This document shows positions 4,128 through 29,979 of a stretch of 64,000 bases of DNA, one piece after another; positions within the stretch are counted from its first letter, which is position 1; each line of letters opens with the position of its first letter. Both the position numbers and the translations under genes were made by a program. This DNA comes from Candidatus Babeliales bacterium (GTDB taxonomy: Bacteria > Babelota > Babeliae > Babelales > RVW-14). The notes beneath the pieces are model-generated. The model was not told where the DNA came from. It saw only the letters and a program-made list of their open reading frames with translations, and made no database searches. The stretch is taken from NCBI GenBank assembly GCA_041671765.1, contig JBAZAX010000007.1, forward strand, positions 68 through 64,067. The letters run 5' to 3'.

Positions 4128-4952
4128 ATGGTTTTCAAGAAATTTTCACGCATAAACACCCTAGCTGTTATACCATTCTGTGTAATTAATGTGCCAAACT
4201 TGCCCGCTCGTGGTGAGTGTTTTTTGCAGGCCGCACCCTTCGATATACCTCGCAGAGCTCGGCACTCAGGGCGAGCGGCCAAAAAAAACGTATCGAACCA
4301 TGCGGGCATAATATTTACTTTGAATGGTATTATATTATTTTTATTATTCTTCAACGCATATTCTCTGAATGCAAATCTTGTTGAAATAAAAAAAATAAAT
4401 CCAACAATCAAACTCGATATTCGATACGCAACAACAAATAATTTTACAGGCAAAATTATTTATCCATCTGCACGGTGTTTTCTTGAAGAAGAGGTAACCA
4501 AGGCGCTTGATGCAGTACAAAAAGAACTAAATTCAATTGGTTATGGACTAAAAATATTTGATGGGTACAGACCACTTTCAGTGCAAAAAATATTCTGGAA
4601 TATATACCCTGATGAAAAATATGTAGCAAATCCAACCAAAGGATCCAAACACAACCGCGGAACAGCTGTTGATTTGACTTTGATTGATACCAAATCAGGA
4701 AAAGAACTAAAAATGCCATCTGAATTCGATGAATTCTCTTCACATGCAAACCGTAATTATGCAAAAATGAACGACAAAGCAGCTAAACACAACTGCAAGC
4801 TACTCGAATTTGTTATGAAAAAGCATGGTTTTATAGGTCTTACTAGCGAATGGTGGCATTTTGACTACAAAAATTGGAAAAAATACCCGATTCAGGATGT
4901 TTCATTTACAGAGCTAAAAACCCAAAATCCGCTAGTTAACAATTCTAATTAA
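4128..4952 (+). CDS. ddpX: D-alanyl-D-alanine dipeptidase (VanX/DdpX family)
   Basis: IRYATTNNFTG, GYRPLSVQ, SKHNRGTAVDLTLID and EWWHFDY match VanX-family zinc-dipeptidase motifs. ATG 4128 has AAGAGGG 6 nt upstream. The N-terminal approx 65 aa contains a GC-rich repeat, so the start is uncertain. Confidence 0.85.
   Translation: MVFKKFSRINTLAVIPFCVINVPNLPARGECFLQAAPFDIPRRARHSGRAAKKNVSNHAGIIFTLNGIILFLLFFNAYSLNANLVEIKKINPTIKLDIRYATTNNFTGKIIYPSARCFLEEEVTKALDAVQKELNSIGYGLKIFDGYRPLSVQKIFWNIYPDEKYVANPTKGSKHNRGTAVDLTLIDTKSGKELKMPSEFDEFSSHANRNYAKMNDKAAKHNCKLLEFVMKKHGFIGLTSEWWHFDYKNWKKYPIQDVSFTELKTQNPLVNNSN
4202..4280. repeat. GC-rich palindromic mini-element (copy E1, GCCCGCTCGTGGTGAG module)
   Basis: Starts GCCCGCTCGTGGTGAG, as at 26782 and 29204, and ends GGGCGAGCGGC, the inverted complement of its start. 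Stands out as GC-rich in an AT-rich background. Confidence 0.6.
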
Positions 4953-23439: not shown

Positions 23440-23786
23440 TTAATGCCAGTTCGATAACTAAAGACTGTTTATATTTTCTCATTGAATGTTGGTTGCAACG
23501 TGCGTTTTTGTCATCCTGAACTTGATTCAGGATCTCTTTTTTCAAGTATTGAAGATCAACAAAATGCTTGGATTGATGGAATTTATTAATTTTATGGGTA
23601 CTGAAATAAGCGACCTATTAACAAAAAATAACGGGGATTTTATTTTATTTATATAGATCCTGAATCAAGTTCCCAGCCGTCGCGTTTGAAACGCTATGGC
23701 GGACAGGCAGGATGACAAAAATACAATTCAAAGGCCCATCTCAGTAAGAGTTTTTAAGTCTCGCCGAATTATCGAGTTCACGTTAT
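23440..23786. mobile_element. MITE-like element, copy 2 (347 bp) carrying a nested 36-bp GC-rich insertion
   Basis: TIRs TTAATGCCAGTTCGATAACT and AATTATCGAGTTCACGTTAT. Colinear with copy 1, including the TGTCATCCTGAACTTGATTCAGGATC arms. An extra approx 24 bp and a 36-bp insert split the right arm. Confidence 0.75.
23673..23708. repeat. 36-bp GC-rich mini-insertion (GCCTGTCCGCC...GGCTGG family, reverse orientation)
   Basis: CCAGCCGTCGCGTTTGAAACGCTATGGCGGACAGGC interrupts GATCCTGAATCAAGTTC|AGGATGACA, which is intact in copy 1. Same length and termini as the insert at 26796-26831. Confidence 0.6.
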
Positions 23787-23795
23787 TTATGGCTA

Positions 23796-24569
23796 CTAAA
23801 ATTTAACCGCTTTTGCATTCAGTAATGCAGTCTCAAAAACTATTTTTCCATCATTTCTCGCCGCACAAATTCGATCAACGATATCCTGCGTAAATTCCCG
23901 AGCCTTGTCATCAGGCAATCCAGTTGAATGTGGCACCCAGGCAAATATTGCATTAAATAAATCTTCTTTATTTTGACATGTCCCTGCAAACAGCTCTTGC
24001 TTAACATTTATGTCCTGAAAGCCTGCATTTTCAAGAAGTTTGCCAAATCCACTCACTGTTTGAGGGAAATATGATTGAGGACGTTTTGAGAGAAATGGAG
24101 CCCATTTTTCAAATTCATAAACCTCTGACACCGGACCTCTTAAAAAGGCACCCATCTGTATAATAATTTTACCGCCTGGTTTCAAGTGTTTATACAAATT
24201 TTTAACTGCACTTTCCTGATCTTTAACCCAATGAAATGCAGCAAAACTAGTAATCAAATCAAACTTTTTATCAATTGAAAAGGTAATAGCATCACTGCAA
24301 ACAAATTCAAGATTCTTAATATTATTAAAACTACTTTTAGCCTCGGTAATCATGTTTGGTGAAATATCTAAACCGATAACTGTTCCTTCCGGGACATGTT
24401 TTGCAATCTCGGCTGTTATTCGCCCATCACCGCATCCAACATCAAGAACATTCTCATTTCCACGAAAATTTATTTCACGAATTGTACTTACACCATGATC
24501 AAACTGGCCATCAGAATTTTTTTTATAATGTTTTGCATCCCATTGATCTTGTTGATTATTTATATTCAC
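23796..24569 (-). CDS. class I SAM-dependent methyltransferase
   Basis: VLDVGCGDGRIT motif I. 257 aa, Tam/UbiE-like architecture. Confidence 0.85.
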   Translation of the reverse strand: MNINNQQDQWDAKHYKKNSDGQFDHGVSTIREINFRGNENVLDVGCGDGRITAEIAKHVPEGTVIGLDISPNMITEAKSSFNNIKNLEFVCSDAITFSIDKKFDLITSFAAFHWVKDQESAVKNLYKHLKPGGKIIIQMGAFLRGPVSEVYEFEKWAPFLSKRPQSYFPQTVSGFGKLLENAGFQDINVKQELFAGTCQNKEDLFNAIFAWVPHSTGLPDDKAREFTQDIVDRICAARNDGKIVFETALLNAKAVKF

Positions 24570-24616: not shown

Positions 24617-26728
24617 TTACTCAATTCCCATATCACTTAAAAATGCATCTTGAGTTGGTTTGCGGCCAAGAAAATCTTTCAACAACTCCTCAGGATCAAC
24701 ACTTCCGCCTTTGCTAAGAACTTTTGCAACAAGTTCTTTTCCTACTGCTGGATCAAACAAGCCTCGTTTTTTTACATCATAAAACAGATCTAATGCAAAG
24801 ACCTTTGCCCACATATAACTGTAATACTTTGCCCCATAGCCAACCAAATGGCCAAATGATGCATGAAAATGAGTTTGATCATCAAACTGAAGGTGTGATT
24901 GATACTTTTCAAATAATGCTTCAGTAATTGAATCAATATCTTTTATCTTCCCATCTTTAAAAAATTCAAGAGAGATAAAAGACAGGCAACATTGACGCAA
25001 AACAAAACTTCCCGAATCAAATTTTTTCATAAAGATAAGTTTGTCAATCAATTCATCCGGTAATGGCTGTCCTGATTGGTAGTGACTACTTAATTTTTTT
25101 AAGACTGACTTATCAGACATCCATTCTTCAAACATTTGCGACGGCACTTCAACAAAATCCGTTTTCACCGATGTACCCGCAAAACTTGCCATTTGCGTGG
25201 CACCAAGCACATCGTGCATTGCATGACCAAATTCATGAAAGAATGTATTCACATCATCAAATTTAAGCAGTGCCGGACGATCTTTTTGCGATTTTGGAAA
25301 ATTTGCAATGATCGCAAGAACTGCCGGCGCAATTTTTCCATTATCCTTAAGTTGTGTTGGAATAATCGGTGCACAACATGCATGACTGTATTTGTTTTCA
25401 CGAGGGTATAAATCAATAAACAGATATCCACGTAAAATATCCGTTTGGGAATCCAAAATTTTAATTAATAAAACATCATCATGCCAAGCCCATTCAGGTT
25501 TGGAAATCTCAAATTTAAGTCCTAAGAAATTTTGATAAATTTCAAAAATTGCATTTAACGTTTTATCCACAGGAAAATATTGTGCAATTTCACGTTCATC
25601 AATATTAAAATGTTTTTTCTTATAACAGGCTTTTATATAACTAAGATTCCATGGCTGAAGCTTCCCACACGAATTAATATTAACATCTGCGGGTAAATCT
25701 TTTAAAAAATTTTCTATCTCTATAGAAGCCTTTTTCTCTGATTTTATGGCAAGATTATTCAAAAATTCTTCTGCTGTTTCAAGTCTTTTTACCATCTCTG
25801 AATCAAGATCAAATTCAGAAAAATTCTTAAATCCCACTTTACGGGCAAGTTTATCACGATTTAGTATTATTCCATGTAAACAATCAATATTTATAGGCCA
25901 AGCACGATTATTAAACTTACGGTAAAGATCTTTTCTTGTATCTTCGCACGTACAATGCTGCATAACCTCAAAATAAGTAGGATAATCACACCCAAGAACG
26001 ATCTTGTCATTCTCACGAGGCAGAGAATCAATAAAATCTTTACCCAAACCCTGTAGCTTTGACTCATCAGTTAAGATAAAACTGTTATCTTTTGCAAGAT
26101 TTGACTCAAAATCTAACCCCAATTTTGAAAGCTCTTTCTCCAGCGCCTTTACTTTCTCAAGTTTATCATCAGGTAAATGTAACCCCTGACGTTCAAAATC
26201 TTTTAATGTTTCTTTTACAAAAAGCTGTTGCTCAGAAGTTAATTTTTCTTTTTCAAAATTAGCATGAGAGTAATCATTAAACACTTGGTAAACTTTTTTG
26301 TTGCAGGCAACATTCTCAACATAAAAATGGTTAAGCTCTATGGATGCCTCATGACAAGCTTCGCGAATGTCTTTTTCGGGACTTACCATCTCCAGAAACG
26401 AAAGTATACTGGCTACAATTGAAAATTTTCTATCTGCAGCATCAAGAGCCTGTGCCGTATTCTGAAAATTGTGCTCTTCCGGCTTAATGTTAATTATAGA
26501 ATCGATATCAGCTTTTAATAAATCTATCGCATATTTTGAATAGACTTTAACTTCATCAGACTTTTTTGGAAATACTTTTTTTACATTATCAAATGAATTA
26601 AAATCGTTTTCTATTATTTTTTTAAATTCAATAAAATTCATCGCACACCTACATCTTGCAACCAAATAAACACAACAAAAAACACCAACAACAGCCCCAA
26701 AAACTAAAAACCTTACATTAAATCGCAT
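24617..26728 (-). CDS. M3-family zinc metallopeptidase (oligopeptidase A/thimet-like), membrane-anchored
   Basis: 703 aa. HEFGHAMH zinc motif, downstream E in FVEVPSQMFEEW. N-terminal TM. Confidence 0.9.
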   Translation of the reverse strand: MRFNVRFLVFGAVVGVFCCVYLVARCRCAMNFIEFKKIIENDFNSFDNVKKVFPKKSDEVKVYSKYAIDLLKADIDSIINIKPEEHNFQNTAQALDAADRKFSIVASILSFLEMVSPEKDIREACHEASIELNHFYVENVACNKKVYQVFNDYSHANFEKEKLTSEQQLFVKETLKDFERQGLHLPDDKLEKVKALEKELSKLGLDFESNLAKDNSFILTDESKLQGLGKDFIDSLPRENDKIVLGCDYPTYFEVMQHCTCEDTRKDLYRKFNNRAWPINIDCLHGIILNRDKLARKVGFKNFSEFDLDSEMVKRLETAEEFLNNLAIKSEKKASIEIENFLKDLPADVNINSCGKLQPWNLSYIKACYKKKHFNIDEREIAQYFPVDKTLNAIFEIYQNFLGLKFEISKPEWAWHDDVLLIKILDSQTDILRGYLFIDLYPRENKYSHACCAPIIPTQLKDNGKIAPAVLAIIANFPKSQKDRPALLKFDDVNTFFHEFGHAMHDVLGATQMASFAGTSVKTDFVEVPSQMFEEWMSDKSVLKKLSSHYQSGQPLPDELIDKLIFMKKFDSGSFVLRQCCLSFISLEFFKDGKIKDIDSITEALFEKYQSHLQFDDQTHFHASFGHLVGYGAKYYSYMWAKVFALDLFYDVKKRGLFDPAVGKELVAKVLSKGGSVDPEELLKDFLGRKPTQDAFLSDMGIE

Positions 26729-26781
26729 TATAAGAAGCCCTTATTTAATAGATGTCTTCCGAAACCAAACAACTCCAACCA

Positions 26782-26865
26782 GCCCGCTCGTGGTGCCTGT
26801 CCGCCGAAGCTACTATCAAGCGAAGGCTGGGAGCTTGTCGAACCATCGCCCAAAGGGCGGCGGGC
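26782..26865. repeat. GC-rich palindromic mini-element (copy E3) with nested 36-bp insert at 26796-26831
   Basis: GCCCGCTCGTGGTG[36-bp insert]AGCTTGTCGAACCATCGCCCAAAGGGCGGCGGGC. Without the insert it matches the 48-bp copy at 29204. Confidence 0.65.
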
Positions 26866-26949
26866 AAAGATTCAGAAGAGCTTTAATGTTTTTTTACTTC
26901 ATTCTTTCATAAGTATAAGCATACAAGATTTTGTAATCACATACAAAGT

Positions 26950-26990
26950 ACAAAATAAAAACCCCCGCTTACAATTAAGTAAATGGGGGT
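26950..26990 (-). terminator. rho-independent terminator
   Basis: Minus-strand stem ACCCCCATTTAC / GTAAGCGGGGGT, followed by TTTTTATTTT. Confidence 0.6.
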
Positions 26991-27011
26991 CAAATTTAAA
27001 AACTAGAGGAT

Positions 27012-27716
27012 TTACTGTAAAGAACAGCTCTCTCTTTTAATTTTTCCGGCTTTGTCTGAAACGTGTCTTAAAGCCTGTCTTCCATGTCTCAATGTAAAAT
27101 CAGTTACCAAAGGAGCCGCTGCACCAGCAACATAACTCACACCACCGGTAGCAGGAATAGCAACTATGGCACCAACAAGATACAACCCCTCAACAACGTG
27201 TCCGGCTGTTCTATATGGATGAGCTTGTACATAACTTAACCCATCACGACCAAGAGCAAAAACTGCTGCACCCTTTGTTCGCACCACTTTGAACAATTCG
27301 CCATCAAAATTAAAGTACTGGTTAACTTTTACGTCACCGTGTTCGTCAAGCTTCAATTCGACTGTCTTTTCTGGTTGTGCAACCTGTGTTTGAACGATTT
27401 CCATTGGAGCTGTTTGCTCTTTGGCAGCAACGATCTCATTTAGCAATCTAACAATAGATTCATCCTCTACTCTTGCTGCAGCTGCTAATCCACGCGTATC
27501 GCCAGAAAACCAATTATCGCCATCTCTTGTATAAACTTCGCCCTGAACAGCTTCGCTATCTTTAAATGTCAATAATCCGGTTGCTCTATCCCATGTAGAA
27601 TAACGAACAATCGACTGGCCATATACTGCTGCTTCTGCAGGGGCCGTTTTTTCCATAGAATAAAGACCTGAACCTACCAATAACGCTGATGTTAGAACAA
27701 TAAACATCTTTTTCAT
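27012..27716 (-). CDS. leader-bearing protein with C-terminal hydrophobic segment, polybasic tract and CaaX box (CSLQ)
   Basis: Start moved to ATG 27716 (MKKMFIVLTSALLVGSGLYS) after AGGAGG. Ends DKAGKIKRESCSLQ*. No family recognised. Visibly more GC-rich than its surroundings. Confidence 0.65.
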   Translation of the reverse strand: MKKMFIVLTSALLVGSGLYSMEKTAPAEAAVYGQSIVRYSTWDRATGLLTFKDSEAVQGEVYTRDGDNWFSGDTRGLAAAARVEDESIVRLLNEIVAAKEQTAPMEIVQTQVAQPEKTVELKLDEHGDVKVNQYFNFDGELFKVVRTKGAAVFALGRDGLSYVQAHPYRTAGHVVEGLYLVGAIVAIPATGGVSYVAGAAAPLVTDFTLRHGRQALRHVSDKAGKIKRESCSLQ

Positions 27717-27982
27717 GAAATAACCTCCTAAAATATAACCTACCACTTTTACTTACTTATAACCTACCATTTCCCTCTGTCAAAGCTTTTAACGTTTCTT
27801 TGATCAGGACGAAAAGCCATTTTCAGACTTTTCTATTTAAAAACTTATAACTTATTATATACCTGTAAATTTAAATTGTAAAACGCCATACAGATCGGCA
27901 AATCCATAAAACAACTTCTTGCCGATAGCCCCCGATATAGTCATCTCCGAAAGCTAACCAAAAACACATTAAAGCTCTTAAT

Positions 27983-28283
27983 TTAACGTGAGTTCGAGAA
28001 TTAAATATTACGAAAGCCACTATAACGTCGTCCCAACGTAAGCCGTGATCCAGTAATGGTTTAGCCTAGACACCGGCCTACGCCCAGGCTACGCGCAAGG
28101 CTTCGCCGGGCACGGCCGGTGCGACAAATAGAATAGCACTTGGCAATGTGGAACCTTCACATGTAGTGTAATTTTTCTTAAATTGACAGCATTGGACCTA
28201 CGCCGGGAAGACCGAGGTGTAATATCGTTTAGCGTTATTACACCGCATAACATGAATCATTATGATTATAGAACTCGCGCCTA
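27983..28283. mobile_element. possible third, divergent MITE-like element (approx 301 bp) with GC-rich cargo
   Basis: Left end TTAACGTGAGTTCGAGAATT resembles the other TIRs. The right end GATTATAGAACTCGCGCCTA matches its reverse complement at about 13/20. Similar length, but the interior is diverged and holds GC-rich hairpins. Confidence 0.4.
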
Positions 28284-28321
28284 CTTAATAACCCAGGCTC
28301 GATCTAATCACTGATTTGATC

Positions 28322-28981
28322 CTATTTTAACAAATGAGAGGCATCCTGGCCACCATCATGGGCAAAAAACTTTCGTTGAATATACCCCGAAAGGTAATCT
28401 TGTGGTTGAAATCCTGCAAGAAAAGGCATCAAAAGCTGTCCATCTTTATAAAATAAAAAAAGTGGCAAATCAACCTTTTTCAGCTTATAAAACATCGAAA
28501 TTTGCATAAAAATATCCATATTTTGTGCAACATTTAATCCCGCAAATATAACTTGATTTTTGAATTCATCTGCAACTGCCTGAAAAACCGGTGCTACTTT
28601 ACCTGAATCCTGACTCATGGGTGAATAAATTTTCAAAACAACCGGTTTTGAATACGAATTTTTGACAACCAATTTGGTAAATTGTGCCATTCCCTGAATA
28701 TTAAAGACAAGGCTTTCAGGCACACTATCTGTTACACTTTCAGCTGCAATCTGAGCAGTATTGTCGGACGAATTTTTGGTTATATCACCAGATTGATGTT
28801 CTTGTTGGGGTTCTTGATGTTCGATTTGCTCCCGCTGTTCATATGCCACCTGCGATTTTTCTTGCCCAGCCCCGCCAGATCGCACAATTTTTGTAAATAA
28901 TCCGCCCTGGTCAGGCTCAACATAACAAAGTAGATAAGAAAACGTTAAAAAAAATAGAAAGCTAAACCCTAAAACCTTCAT
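28322..28981 (-). CDS. secreted thioredoxin-fold protein lacking the CxxC active site
   Basis: Leader MKVLGFSFLFFLTFSYLLC. The C-terminal half is colinear with thioredoxin (PVVLKIYSPMSQDSGKVAPVFQAVADEFKNQVIFAGLNV..LPLFLFYKDGQ), with SPMSQDS in place of WCGPC. Confidence 0.6.
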   Translation of the reverse strand: MKVLGFSFLFFLTFSYLLCYVEPDQGGLFTKIVRSGGAGQEKSQVAYEQREQIEHQEPQQEHQSGDITKNSSDNTAQIAAESVTDSVPESLVFNIQGMAQFTKLVVKNSYSKPVVLKIYSPMSQDSGKVAPVFQAVADEFKNQVIFAGLNVAQNMDIFMQISMFYKLKKVDLPLFLFYKDGQLLMPFLAGFQPQDYLSGYIQRKFFAHDGGQDASHLLK

Positions 28982-29203
28982 GACTCCCCCCTACCGTAAC
29001 TGTATTATCAGGCCCAACATACCCCACAACACTAAGATCTCGCCCCTAACGAGGATCTTGTCCCTTATTTATGATAAAAAATTACAGCCTGAAATTACAA
29101 TAAATGGGTTTTTAAGTTTAAAGTAGGGGGAGTTATACCCTACTTCGCAATTTATTGTTTCGTTATTTATTAGACTTCTTGCATAACTTGGAAATCTAAA
29201 AAA

Positions 29204-29251
29204 GCGCGCTCGTGGTGAGCTTGTCGAACCATCGCCCGAAGGGCGACGGGC
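29204..29251. repeat. GC-rich palindromic mini-element (copy E5, 48-bp core form)
   Basis: GCGCGCTCGTGGTGAGCTTGTCGAACCATCGCCCGAAGGGCGACGGGC. Internal hairpin TCGCCC-GAA-GGGCGA. Flanked by the inverted CTTGCATAAC / GTTATGCAAG. Confidence 0.65.
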
Positions 29252-29277
29252 TTAGGTTATGCAAGAGATTTATTAAG

Positions 29278-29979
29278 TTATTTATTAACACCTAGCTTAT
29301 CTGCCAACGCTATCGCCCCTTCGTGAGAAGGGTCCAAGAAGAGCACGGCCTCCATCTCAGTCTTGGCCAAAGCTTTGTTTTGTAATTTAAAAGCCGATAA
29401 AGCCAAAAAATAGTGCGCATCTACATATTCCGGAGCCAATGCTACCGTTCTAGAAAATTCACTTACGGCTTGTTCATAATTCTGCCTGTCAAAAAAGATC
29501 TTACCTCTGTTAAATACTGCAGCTTGAGGCGTAAAATAGTCACTATCCTTGGCCAGATTATCTAATATACTCAAGGACTTATCAACGTTCCCCATCTGCG
29601 CAAGCAAACAAGCATAGTTATTCAATATACTCGCACGCACCTTTGCAGATACATTGTCAAAAGCTAAGGCTGCCTCAAAACTTTGGCAACTTTGCTCAAA
29701 ATCTCCCAACCTAAAAAGTATTGTCGCTTTAACCGCCAAGAAATCAGCACTCGCCTTACAATTTATTGCCTCCTGAATATAAGACAAGGCCTTTCTGTAA
29801 GTAGTTTGGGGACTGTCGCTCTTATCTGAATTTTGTGAAACTTCCAACATGCAAAGCTTATAATAAGTTTGTGATAATTTCTCATTTTTATCGTCCAACT
29901 TTTTGCCACACCCGCACAAAAGCATTGCCAAACCCATACCAAATGCACAAAAAGTTCCTATCATTTTCTTTTTATTCAT
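29278..29979 (-). CDS. TPR-repeat lipoprotein
   Basis: Start moved to ATG 29979 (MNKKKMIGTFCAFGMGLAMLLCGCGKK, lipobox LLCGC) after GGGAGA. TPR-like A..Y..A..L repeats throughout. Confidence 0.75.
   Translation of the reverse strand: MNKKKMIGTFCAFGMGLAMLLCGCGKKLDDKNEKLSQTYYKLCMLEVSQNSDKSDSPQTTYRKALSYIQEAINCKASADFLAVKATILFRLGDFEQSCQSFEAALAFDNVSAKVRASILNNYACLLAQMGNVDKSLSILDNLAKDSDYFTPQAAVFNRGKIFFDRQNYEQAVSEFSRTVALAPEYVDAHYFLALSAFKLQNKALAKTEMEAVLFLDPSHEGAIALADKLGVNK

Follow-up and report, generated by a model that had tools for sequence, protein, structure and literature searches.

A cosmopolitan family of nested hairpin modules in a Candidatus Babeliales genome and a candidate GIY-YIG nuclease partner

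Three GC-rich elements in the genome of a Candidatus Babeliales bacterium, denoted here E1, E3 and E5, belong to a family of short hairpin modules that is found in many bacterial phyla, and represent in our estimate, with a probability of roughly 0.6, the end hairpins of a nuclease-repeat system that runs parallel to Ssn-NTS, here in solo or nested form. To our knowledge, short palindromic repeats are common in bacteria and most of them have no known partner enzyme; the only repeat-enzyme pairings that we have met are those of REP with RAYT and, since 2025, of NTS/SRM with Ssn. The contribution of the present analysis is a near-identical repeat shared by very distant phyla, combined with a proposed partner nuclease from an uncharacterised family, a pairing that opens the hairpin reader, the mutual nesting of the modules and their in-frame entry into genes to test.

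The three elements and their boundaries

The window, i.e., the whole stretch of 64,000 nucleotides that was analysed, is part of contig 7 of the source assembly (1.45 Mb in 50 contigs, 35.5% GC). The source genome is denoted G000 and its two congeners G003 and G002; contigs are given as C followed by a number. The common 5′ module that an earlier note on this DNA had seen in the three elements is real: the 14-mer GCSCGCTCGTGGTG matches exactly at 4202, 26782 and 29204, always on the plus strand, and no further match appears in the window when up to two mismatches are allowed (three matches against a chance expectation of 0.05). The outer modules of E1, E3 and E5 belong to the class denoted H, which is defined by the triplet pair TGG/CCA; modules with the triplets TCC/GGA or CCC/GGG are denoted D, and K is a second, more abundant family. 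The cores and the inserted blocks are as follows.

E5 core, 29204-29251, plus strand: the 48-mer GCGCGCTCGTGGTGAGCTTGTCGAACCATCGCCCGAAGGGCGACGGGC, made up of a minimal H module (CGCTCG-TGG-TGAG-CTTG-TCGAA-CCA-T) and the hairpin TCGCCC-GAA-GGGCGA.
E3 core, 26782-26865, plus strand: an H module (TGG/CCA class), then a second hairpin, TCGCCC-AAA-GGGCGG, with GCCCGC/GCGGGC closing the whole.
K module nested in E3, 26796-26831, plus strand: 36 nt, CCTGTCCGCCGAAGCTACTATCAAGCGAAGGCTGGG, placed after GGTG of the H module.
E1 core, 4202-4307, plus strand: outer H module, GCCCGCTCGTGGTGAG ... GTATCGAACCATGCGGGC.
D module inside E1, 4236-4274 (C7:4303-4341), minus strand: CCC/GGG class, in reverse orientation at the apex of the outer module.
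E5 block, 29168-29276, plus strand: MITE-like unit of 109 nt.
E3 block, 26749-26874, plus strand: 126 nt, the unit that is common to C22 and missing in the congeners.
E1 block, 4149-4328, plus strand: exactly 180 nt, absent from G003, within the ORF of a VanX-like dipeptidase (4128-4952).

Removal of the 36-nt insert from E3 leaves the E5 core with 3 of 48 bases changed, which bears out the earlier description of E3 as the E5 core plus a nested 36-mer. The end of E1 had been placed at 4280, which is wrong: the sequence GGGCGAGCGGC at about 4270-4280 terminates the reverse-oriented module nested within E1, and the outer module has its actual right arm, GTATCGAACCATGCGGGC, at 4290-4307.

The GC-rich cores are smaller than the units that were inserted, as delimited by the blocks that are common to copies or missing in sister genomes. 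The E5 block has inverted, AT-rich ends of 16-17 nt, formed by the arms TTAGACTTCTTGCATAAC (29170-29187) and GTTATGCAAGAGAT (29256-29269) on either side of the core, and a possible 8-nt direct repeat, ATTTATTA, is found at 29165-29172 and 29268-29275. The block is located between the stop codon of a TPR lipoprotein gene (29278) and a terminator-like hairpin (29128-29152), and thus probably lies in the 3′ UTR of that gene; a second terminator-like hairpin of minus-strand genes is present in the window at 26958-26995. Other copies of the E5 block are found at C32:5263-5370 and at C15:18350-18487, the second hairpin of the latter having a K module in its loop, and the same arms also bracket an element of about 420 nt at C3:10000-10440. 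The E3 block is intergenic, 21-146 nt upstream of the start codon of an M3 peptidase gene (26728, minus strand), and has a homologous copy at C22:12536-12661, in which GTGGT/ACCAT of E3 corresponds to GTCCT/AGGAT, a double compensatory change. The E1 block resides in frame after codon 7 of the gene for the VanX-like D-Ala-D-Ala dipeptidase, the ORF of which remains open; the repeat unit proper spans about 4163-4332 and has the arms ATACCATTC and GAATGGTAT, which are common to E1-type units. As a result of this insertion the signal-peptide region of the dipeptidase is moved 60 codons downstream, and a normal leader, MNGIILFLLFFNAYS, could be regained through an in-frame TTG (4321-4323).

Module anatomy and base pairing

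The module comprises an outer stem, TCG, a triplet NNN, TGAG, a variable part X, (TA)TCGAA, the complementary triplet N′N′N′ and the other side of the outer stem; the minimal core is stem, TCG-NNN-TGAG-CYTG-TCGAA-N′N′N′, stem, and the apex of the H and D modules is TGAGCYTGTCGAA. X can be CTTG or CCTG (the minimal form), a further hairpin, e.g., TGCGCAC-nnnn-GTGCGCG, or a whole module in the opposite orientation, the last option giving E1 its Russian-doll structure. Many H modules of the genus carry a second hairpin, with GCCCGC/GCGGGC enclosing both hairpins, and this second hairpin covaries among copies (TCGCCC/GGGCGA, TCACCC/GGGTGA, TCACCA/TGGTGG). Additional copies are present throughout the genome: the pattern of left arm plus right arm has 47 matches in the 1.45 Mb of G000, counting nested and overlapping ones. 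The K family, which is the source of the 36-mer inside E3, gives 111 matches to its left-arm pattern in G000 at up to two mismatches, some of them by chance; in otherwise identical copies, K modules occupy different sites, namely after GGTG (E3), in the loop of the second hairpin (C15) or before TCGAACC (C12 and C14). A further K-family module, CCTGTCCGCCATAGCGTTTCAAACGCGACGGCTGGG, is located in the window at 23672-23707 on the minus strand, just left of the start of the minus-strand ORF listed at 23796-24569.

The triplets are complementary in 254 of the 296 minimal modules from all loci, for a chance of 1 in 64, and this, along with the double compensatory change between E3 and the C22 copy, argues that module pairing is under selection. 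At least nine triplet types are found, the three main ones plus CAC/GTG, CTG/CAG, TGC/GCA, GAC/GTC, CGC/GCG and GGC/GCC. There are also 13 TCC/GGG modules, with a T.G pair on the TGAG...TCGAA top strand, and none of the mirror A.C type; this 13:0 asymmetry suggests that a single strand folds and is read. Inverted doublets of H and D modules are common, for instance, in G002, a reversed D module followed after a spacer by an H module, or TGG(+)/CCC(-) pairs 64 nt apart in Methylotuvimicrobium buryatense, and the mismatched triplets in such H/D doublets would disfavour a single long perfect palindrome.

Several other structural readings were tried and rejected. A kink-turn at the GA/GA apex fits only the subtype in which X begins with TG and ends with GTA, and was dropped because the GA...GTC subtype and the minimal form do not fit; for tRNA-like and attC-like structures, the consensus features are missing. 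Derivation from rRNA or tRNA, against which the earlier note had weighed its reading, finds no match to rRNA, tRNA or Rfam: at the gathering score, the Rfam search returned only two tRNAs elsewhere in the window, and the region 26700-29320 has no match even at E <= 1.

Recent gain and in-frame copies

The E3 and E5 blocks are missing at the syntenic loci of both G003 and G002, and the E1 block is missing in G003; the flanks in G003 are 87-89% identical to those in G000, and G002 is more distant. Given this absence in the congeners, a single gain in the source lineage is the most parsimonious account, so that E1, E3 and E5 would be recent acquisitions. Elsewhere in G000, composites are found in frame in the genes for a UDP-xylose-synthase-like (UXS) epimerase, a second epimerase, TrmD, a DsbD-type membrane protein (DsbD_TM) and a heparinase-like protein, and Pfam domains run on at either side of the insert. 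The view that these elements form a modular family comparable to REP/BIME and RPE has therefore held up, on account of their modularity, nesting, insertion polymorphism relative to the congeners and in-frame copies in genes. Where a copy separates two genes transcribed in the same direction, its orientation relative to them is not markedly biased (7 anti, 4 same). Contig C37 (11.1 kb) has a GC content of 47%, compared to 35.5% for the genome, and may be foreign DNA or a binning contaminant.

Distribution across bacteria

The module family is cosmopolitan, contrary to the earlier supposition that it is specific to one lineage. An exact-pattern scan with one genome per species detected the module on at least 120 contigs; among the matches listed are Methylococcaceae, Nitrosomonadales/Burkholderiales, Moraxella, Lysobacterales, Chloroflexota/Dehalococcoidia, Nitrospirales, Fibrobacteres, Tectomicrobia, Binatia, Sulfuricurvum and Dependentiae. 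The CGCTCG variant of the module also occurs in a Dependentiae MAG (L090). Beyond chromosomes, 40 plasmids, the majority from Moraxella osloensis and Sphingobium, carry the module, and viral contigs have it in 21 stretches. In four distant genomes, the copies of the minimal module TCGNNNTGAGCNTGTCGAA were counted, with a reversed-pattern control of 0:

Methylotuvimicrobium buryatense 5G: 91 copies
Moraxella lacunata NCTC10359: 146 copies
Dehalococcoidia chromosome (complete): 106 copies
Nitrospirales MAG: 29 copies

The three main triplet classes are all represented in each of these four genomes. Within the order of the source genome the distribution is patchy, with the module in 26 of 41 genomes at 0 to 76 copies each. 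The literature searched, with subscription journals outside its scope, contained neither a description of these sequences nor a link between UPF0213-type GIY-YIG proteins and repeats. On the Dehalococcoidia chromosome (L211, about 1,749,500-1,752,300), four H modules are spaced exactly 352 nt apart, with a fifth 442 nt beyond the last of them; they belong to a tandem array of a longer unit with one module per repeat.

A GIY-YIG gene bracketed by modules

A gene search of G000 identified four small GIY-YIG genes, two of which are flanked by hairpin repeats of different kinds.

GIY-YIG gene of contig 21, C21:12106-12396: 97 aa, starting MQYFYVYILKCNDGSYYTGHTDNIEARVSQHQQG; the single intact D-flanked copy in G000.
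Ssn-like GIY-YIG gene of contig 28, C28:14782-15027: canonical-looking, with inverted NTS-like hairpin flanks GTCGCCCCGG..CCGGGGTCCAG (C28:14685-15108).

In the orientation of the gene, the contig 21 locus has a D module 76 nt upstream and an inverted D module 18 nt downstream, both of the TCC class. Among the 19 orthologues in relatives (at least 40% identical), 10 have modules on both sides and 14 on at least one side, and in the 10 two-sided cases the flanking pair always belongs to the same triplet class; in one of these genomes (G016), it is the TGG class, as in E1, E3 and E5. The same layout is also present in the Nitrospirales MAG and, with the variant apex TGAGCGAAGTCGAA, on a Sphingomonas plasmid. 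In 65 metagenomic loci with GC contents of 32-68%, modules are found on both sides in 25 and on at least one side in 53, the triplet class is the same in 16 of the 25 two-sided loci, and the median distances between gene and module are 28 and 24 nt. The inverted repeat of some loci is free of mismatches for 34-55 nt and extends outward via more nested modules.

The presence of the gene is also correlated with the number of modules. In the set of 41 relatives, the gene is found in 12 of the 18 genomes with at least five modules and in 3 of the 23 with fewer (Fisher p = 0.0008, odds ratio 13). Nevertheless, six module-rich relatives, all of them MAGs, are without the GIY-YIG gene, and no gene of this subtype was found in Moraxella lacunata (146 copies) or Methylotuvimicrobium buryatense 5G (91 copies); modules thus persist, and may even spread, where this gene is missing.

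The contig 21 protein retains the conserved catalytic positions of the GIY-YIG domain. Among solved structures, the UPF0213 proteins 1ZG2 and 1YWL come closest to it. It is 42% identical to B. subtilis yazA and only 34% identical to the SRM-flanked Ssn-like paralogue, and is closer to the UPF0213 structures (E = 1.3e-12 against 3.8e-5). The gene of contig 28 with its NTS-like hairpins implies that G000 has two different nuclease-hairpin pairs.

Other candidate partners were considered and rejected. A DUF559 nuclease is found in 3 of 41 genomes, and in G000 is a domain of a 1109-aa ORF that has no link to the modules. Around 205 modules from 120 cross-phylum loci, only common housekeeping families recur among the neighbouring genes, and the genes between module clusters of the Dehalococcoidia chromosome show nothing consistent.

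Proposed mechanism and alternative explanations

Under the proposed explanation, an inverted pair of modules constitutes the terminal repeats of a minimal unit, the sole gene of which codes for a predicted single-domain GIY-YIG nuclease of about 95 aa and of the UPF0213/YazA type. The Ssn-NTS system (PMC11893778) offers an analogy: most likely, the target of the nuclease is one strand of the module folded into a single-stranded hairpin, next to which the DNA would be cut, and the T.G wobbles confined to one strand give an indirect hint of this. Repair or copying would then spread the modules, with a preference for the apices of other hairpins that would give rise to Russian-doll nests, and selection would retain only the intergenic or in-frame copies. 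The architecture points to the GIY-YIG enzyme as the probable reader of the hairpin repeat; its binding to or cutting of the hairpin, the specificity for single strands, the role of the nuclease in the spread and the copying mechanism are what we infer from the Ssn precedent. A GIY-YIG nuclease alone is incapable of strand transfer, so the copying step needs something more than the nuclease-repeat reading provides. Since the E5 and E1 insertions include AT-rich inverted arms, a different, classical transposase may have made the last move. The flanks of the contig 21 gene count against the explanation, being of the TCC class whereas E1, E3 and E5 are of the TGG class, and another possibility is that the GIY-YIG gene is a passenger, homing into inverted doublets that were already there. 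The broader generalization, namely that the H and D modules and the UPF0213/YazA-type mini GIY-YIG proteins make up a second pan-bacterial nuclease-repeat system, sister to Ssn-NTS, with structure-targeted spread into hairpin apices, is tentative, its odds falling somewhat short of even.

The AT-rich arms are also the starting point for an account in which the three blocks are ordinary MITEs, mobilized by a DDE transposase that reads AT-rich TIRs, and the GC-rich modules are passengers already nested at that time in the centre of the MITE. The 16-17-nt inverted ends and the possible 8-nt direct repeat of E5, the reappearance of these ends around the element of about 420 nt and the common arms of the E1-type units are all consistent with this account, which we regard as unlikely but deserving of some weight, because a full-length IS with these ends was not found in the G000 assembly, a target duplication is seen at one copy only (E5) and there in AT-rich sequence, and both the cross-phylum occurrence of the module and the module-in-module nesting are left unaccounted for. 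It is, moreover, compatible with the nuclease-repeat explanation, as a second layer of mobility. Quite improbable is a scenario without any dedicated enzyme, in which replication and repair by the host (through template switching at hairpins and gene conversion) make the palindromes spread and nest, and the GIY-YIG gene acts as a selfish homing gene with the palindromes as its target. The existence of module-rich genomes without the gene, and its location at the apex of long nested palindromes, are what this scenario would lead one to expect; speaking against it are the near-identical 13-nt apices across phyla, which require a sequence-specific reader, the presence of the three triplet classes in all phyla examined and the great regularity with which gene and modules are arranged.

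The conservation of the asymmetric apex while the stems covary, and the occurrence of G.U-type wobbles on one strand only, could be taken to indicate that the modules are genes for structured non-coding RNAs (for example, with a kink-turn-like GA/GA internal loop) that are kept for an RNA function. This is very unlikely given that the modules occur in both orientations relative to neighbouring genes, are found in frame within ORFs and form inverted terminal pairs around the nuclease gene, and that Rfam gives no match; folding z-scores are unremarkable for E3 and E5 (those for E1 are -3.2 and -3.8). An even poorer case can be made for classical REP/REPIN elements moved by RAYT, a Y1/HUH tyrosine transposase, the type of partner (RAYT/IS200) that the earlier note had in mind. 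The modules do resemble REPs in being short GC-rich palindromes that often form inverted doublets, and a search of the 41 relatives and the four distant module-rich genomes for Y1 genes located them in 16 of the 41 relatives, but these genes show no association with module counts (Fisher p = 0.75), and Y1_Tnp (PF01797) is missing from G000, from Moraxella lacunata and from the complete Dehalococcoidia chromosome, the latter two with more than 100 module copies each. Furthermore, the modules are without a GTAG tag, and the RAYT-like genes of the relatives are flanked not by H or D modules but by a different palindrome, AAAGGGCCGGCGCGAACCGACCCTTT, which lies on both sides of such a gene in one congener (L191, G003:C9) and on one side in another relative (L199, G015:C1) and which, together with the Y1 genes, seems to make up a distinct REP-RAYT system within the family.

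If the H and D modules and the mini GIY-YIG proteins do form such a second pan-bacterial system, this would provide the first function for a branch of the uncharacterised UPF0213/YazA-type family, explain the spurious peptides (PFVVSLSNH, PFDKLRANG and the like) that are encountered in many genomes, and point to a structure-targeted spread that is able to cross phyla via plasmids and phages. A nuclease that is site-specific for single-stranded DNA would, in addition, bring a new specificity to the Ssn toolbox. For genome annotation, the repeats are a source of false ORFs, false N-terminal extensions and extra loops in real proteins.

Relation to known repeat systems

The Rickettsia palindromic elements (RPEs) are palindromic repeats of an AT-rich intracellular-type bacterium that insert in frame into protein genes. 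The modules described here share with them the type of host and the in-frame palindromes in genes that stay open, but belong to another sequence family, are much shorter (cores of about 26-50 nt), are mutually nested and are shared across phyla. The small dispersed repeats (SDR) of Nostocaceae are reportedly very small and nested in other repeats and hairpins (work of Elhai and colleagues from 2008); the tiny size and the nesting are common to both families, whereas the sequences differ.

With the REP/BIME/REPIN-RAYT systems, the modules have in common the GC-rich imperfect palindromes that occur as singlets and inverted doublets, the mosaic arrangement and the cognate gene flanked by repeats (PMC2817692, PMC3116915). 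Unlike in these systems, the flanked gene codes for a GIY-YIG protein rather than for a Y1/HUH enzyme, Y1 is missing from module-rich genomes, and the modules begin with CCG(Y)TCG and have no GTAG (or CGTC) tag at the end.

The Ssn nucleases, which act on single-stranded DNA and are associated with NTS/SRM repeats, have been described recently, with the family defined as cd10448 (Chenal et al., 2025, Nat Commun, PMC11893778). The similarities are a small single-domain GIY-YIG gene between inverted hairpin repeats of 20-50 nt, tens to hundreds of solo repeat copies genome-wide, an oriented hairpin with a conserved non-palindromic part and an occurrence across phyla. The differences concern both partners: E1, E3, E5 and the H/D consensus do not match, on either strand, the SRM consensus given there, HGTCWYN(0-2)YYVSBRHN(0-5)WNVSBRGN(0-2)RNCYNB (PMC11893778), and the nuclease of the present system, the activity of which is a prediction, is nearer to the UPF0213 structures and only 34% identical to the SRM-flanked paralogue. 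Extensive nesting and in-frame copies in genes, as seen here, were not found described for Ssn-NTS in the sections of that paper considered here (PMC11893778). The window itself contains a hairpin of the Ssn type (NTS/SRM-like), GTCGCACCGGCC...GGCCGGTGTCTAGG, at 28064-28129, between the genes at 27012-27746 and 28322-28981, with a K-family module nested in its loop.
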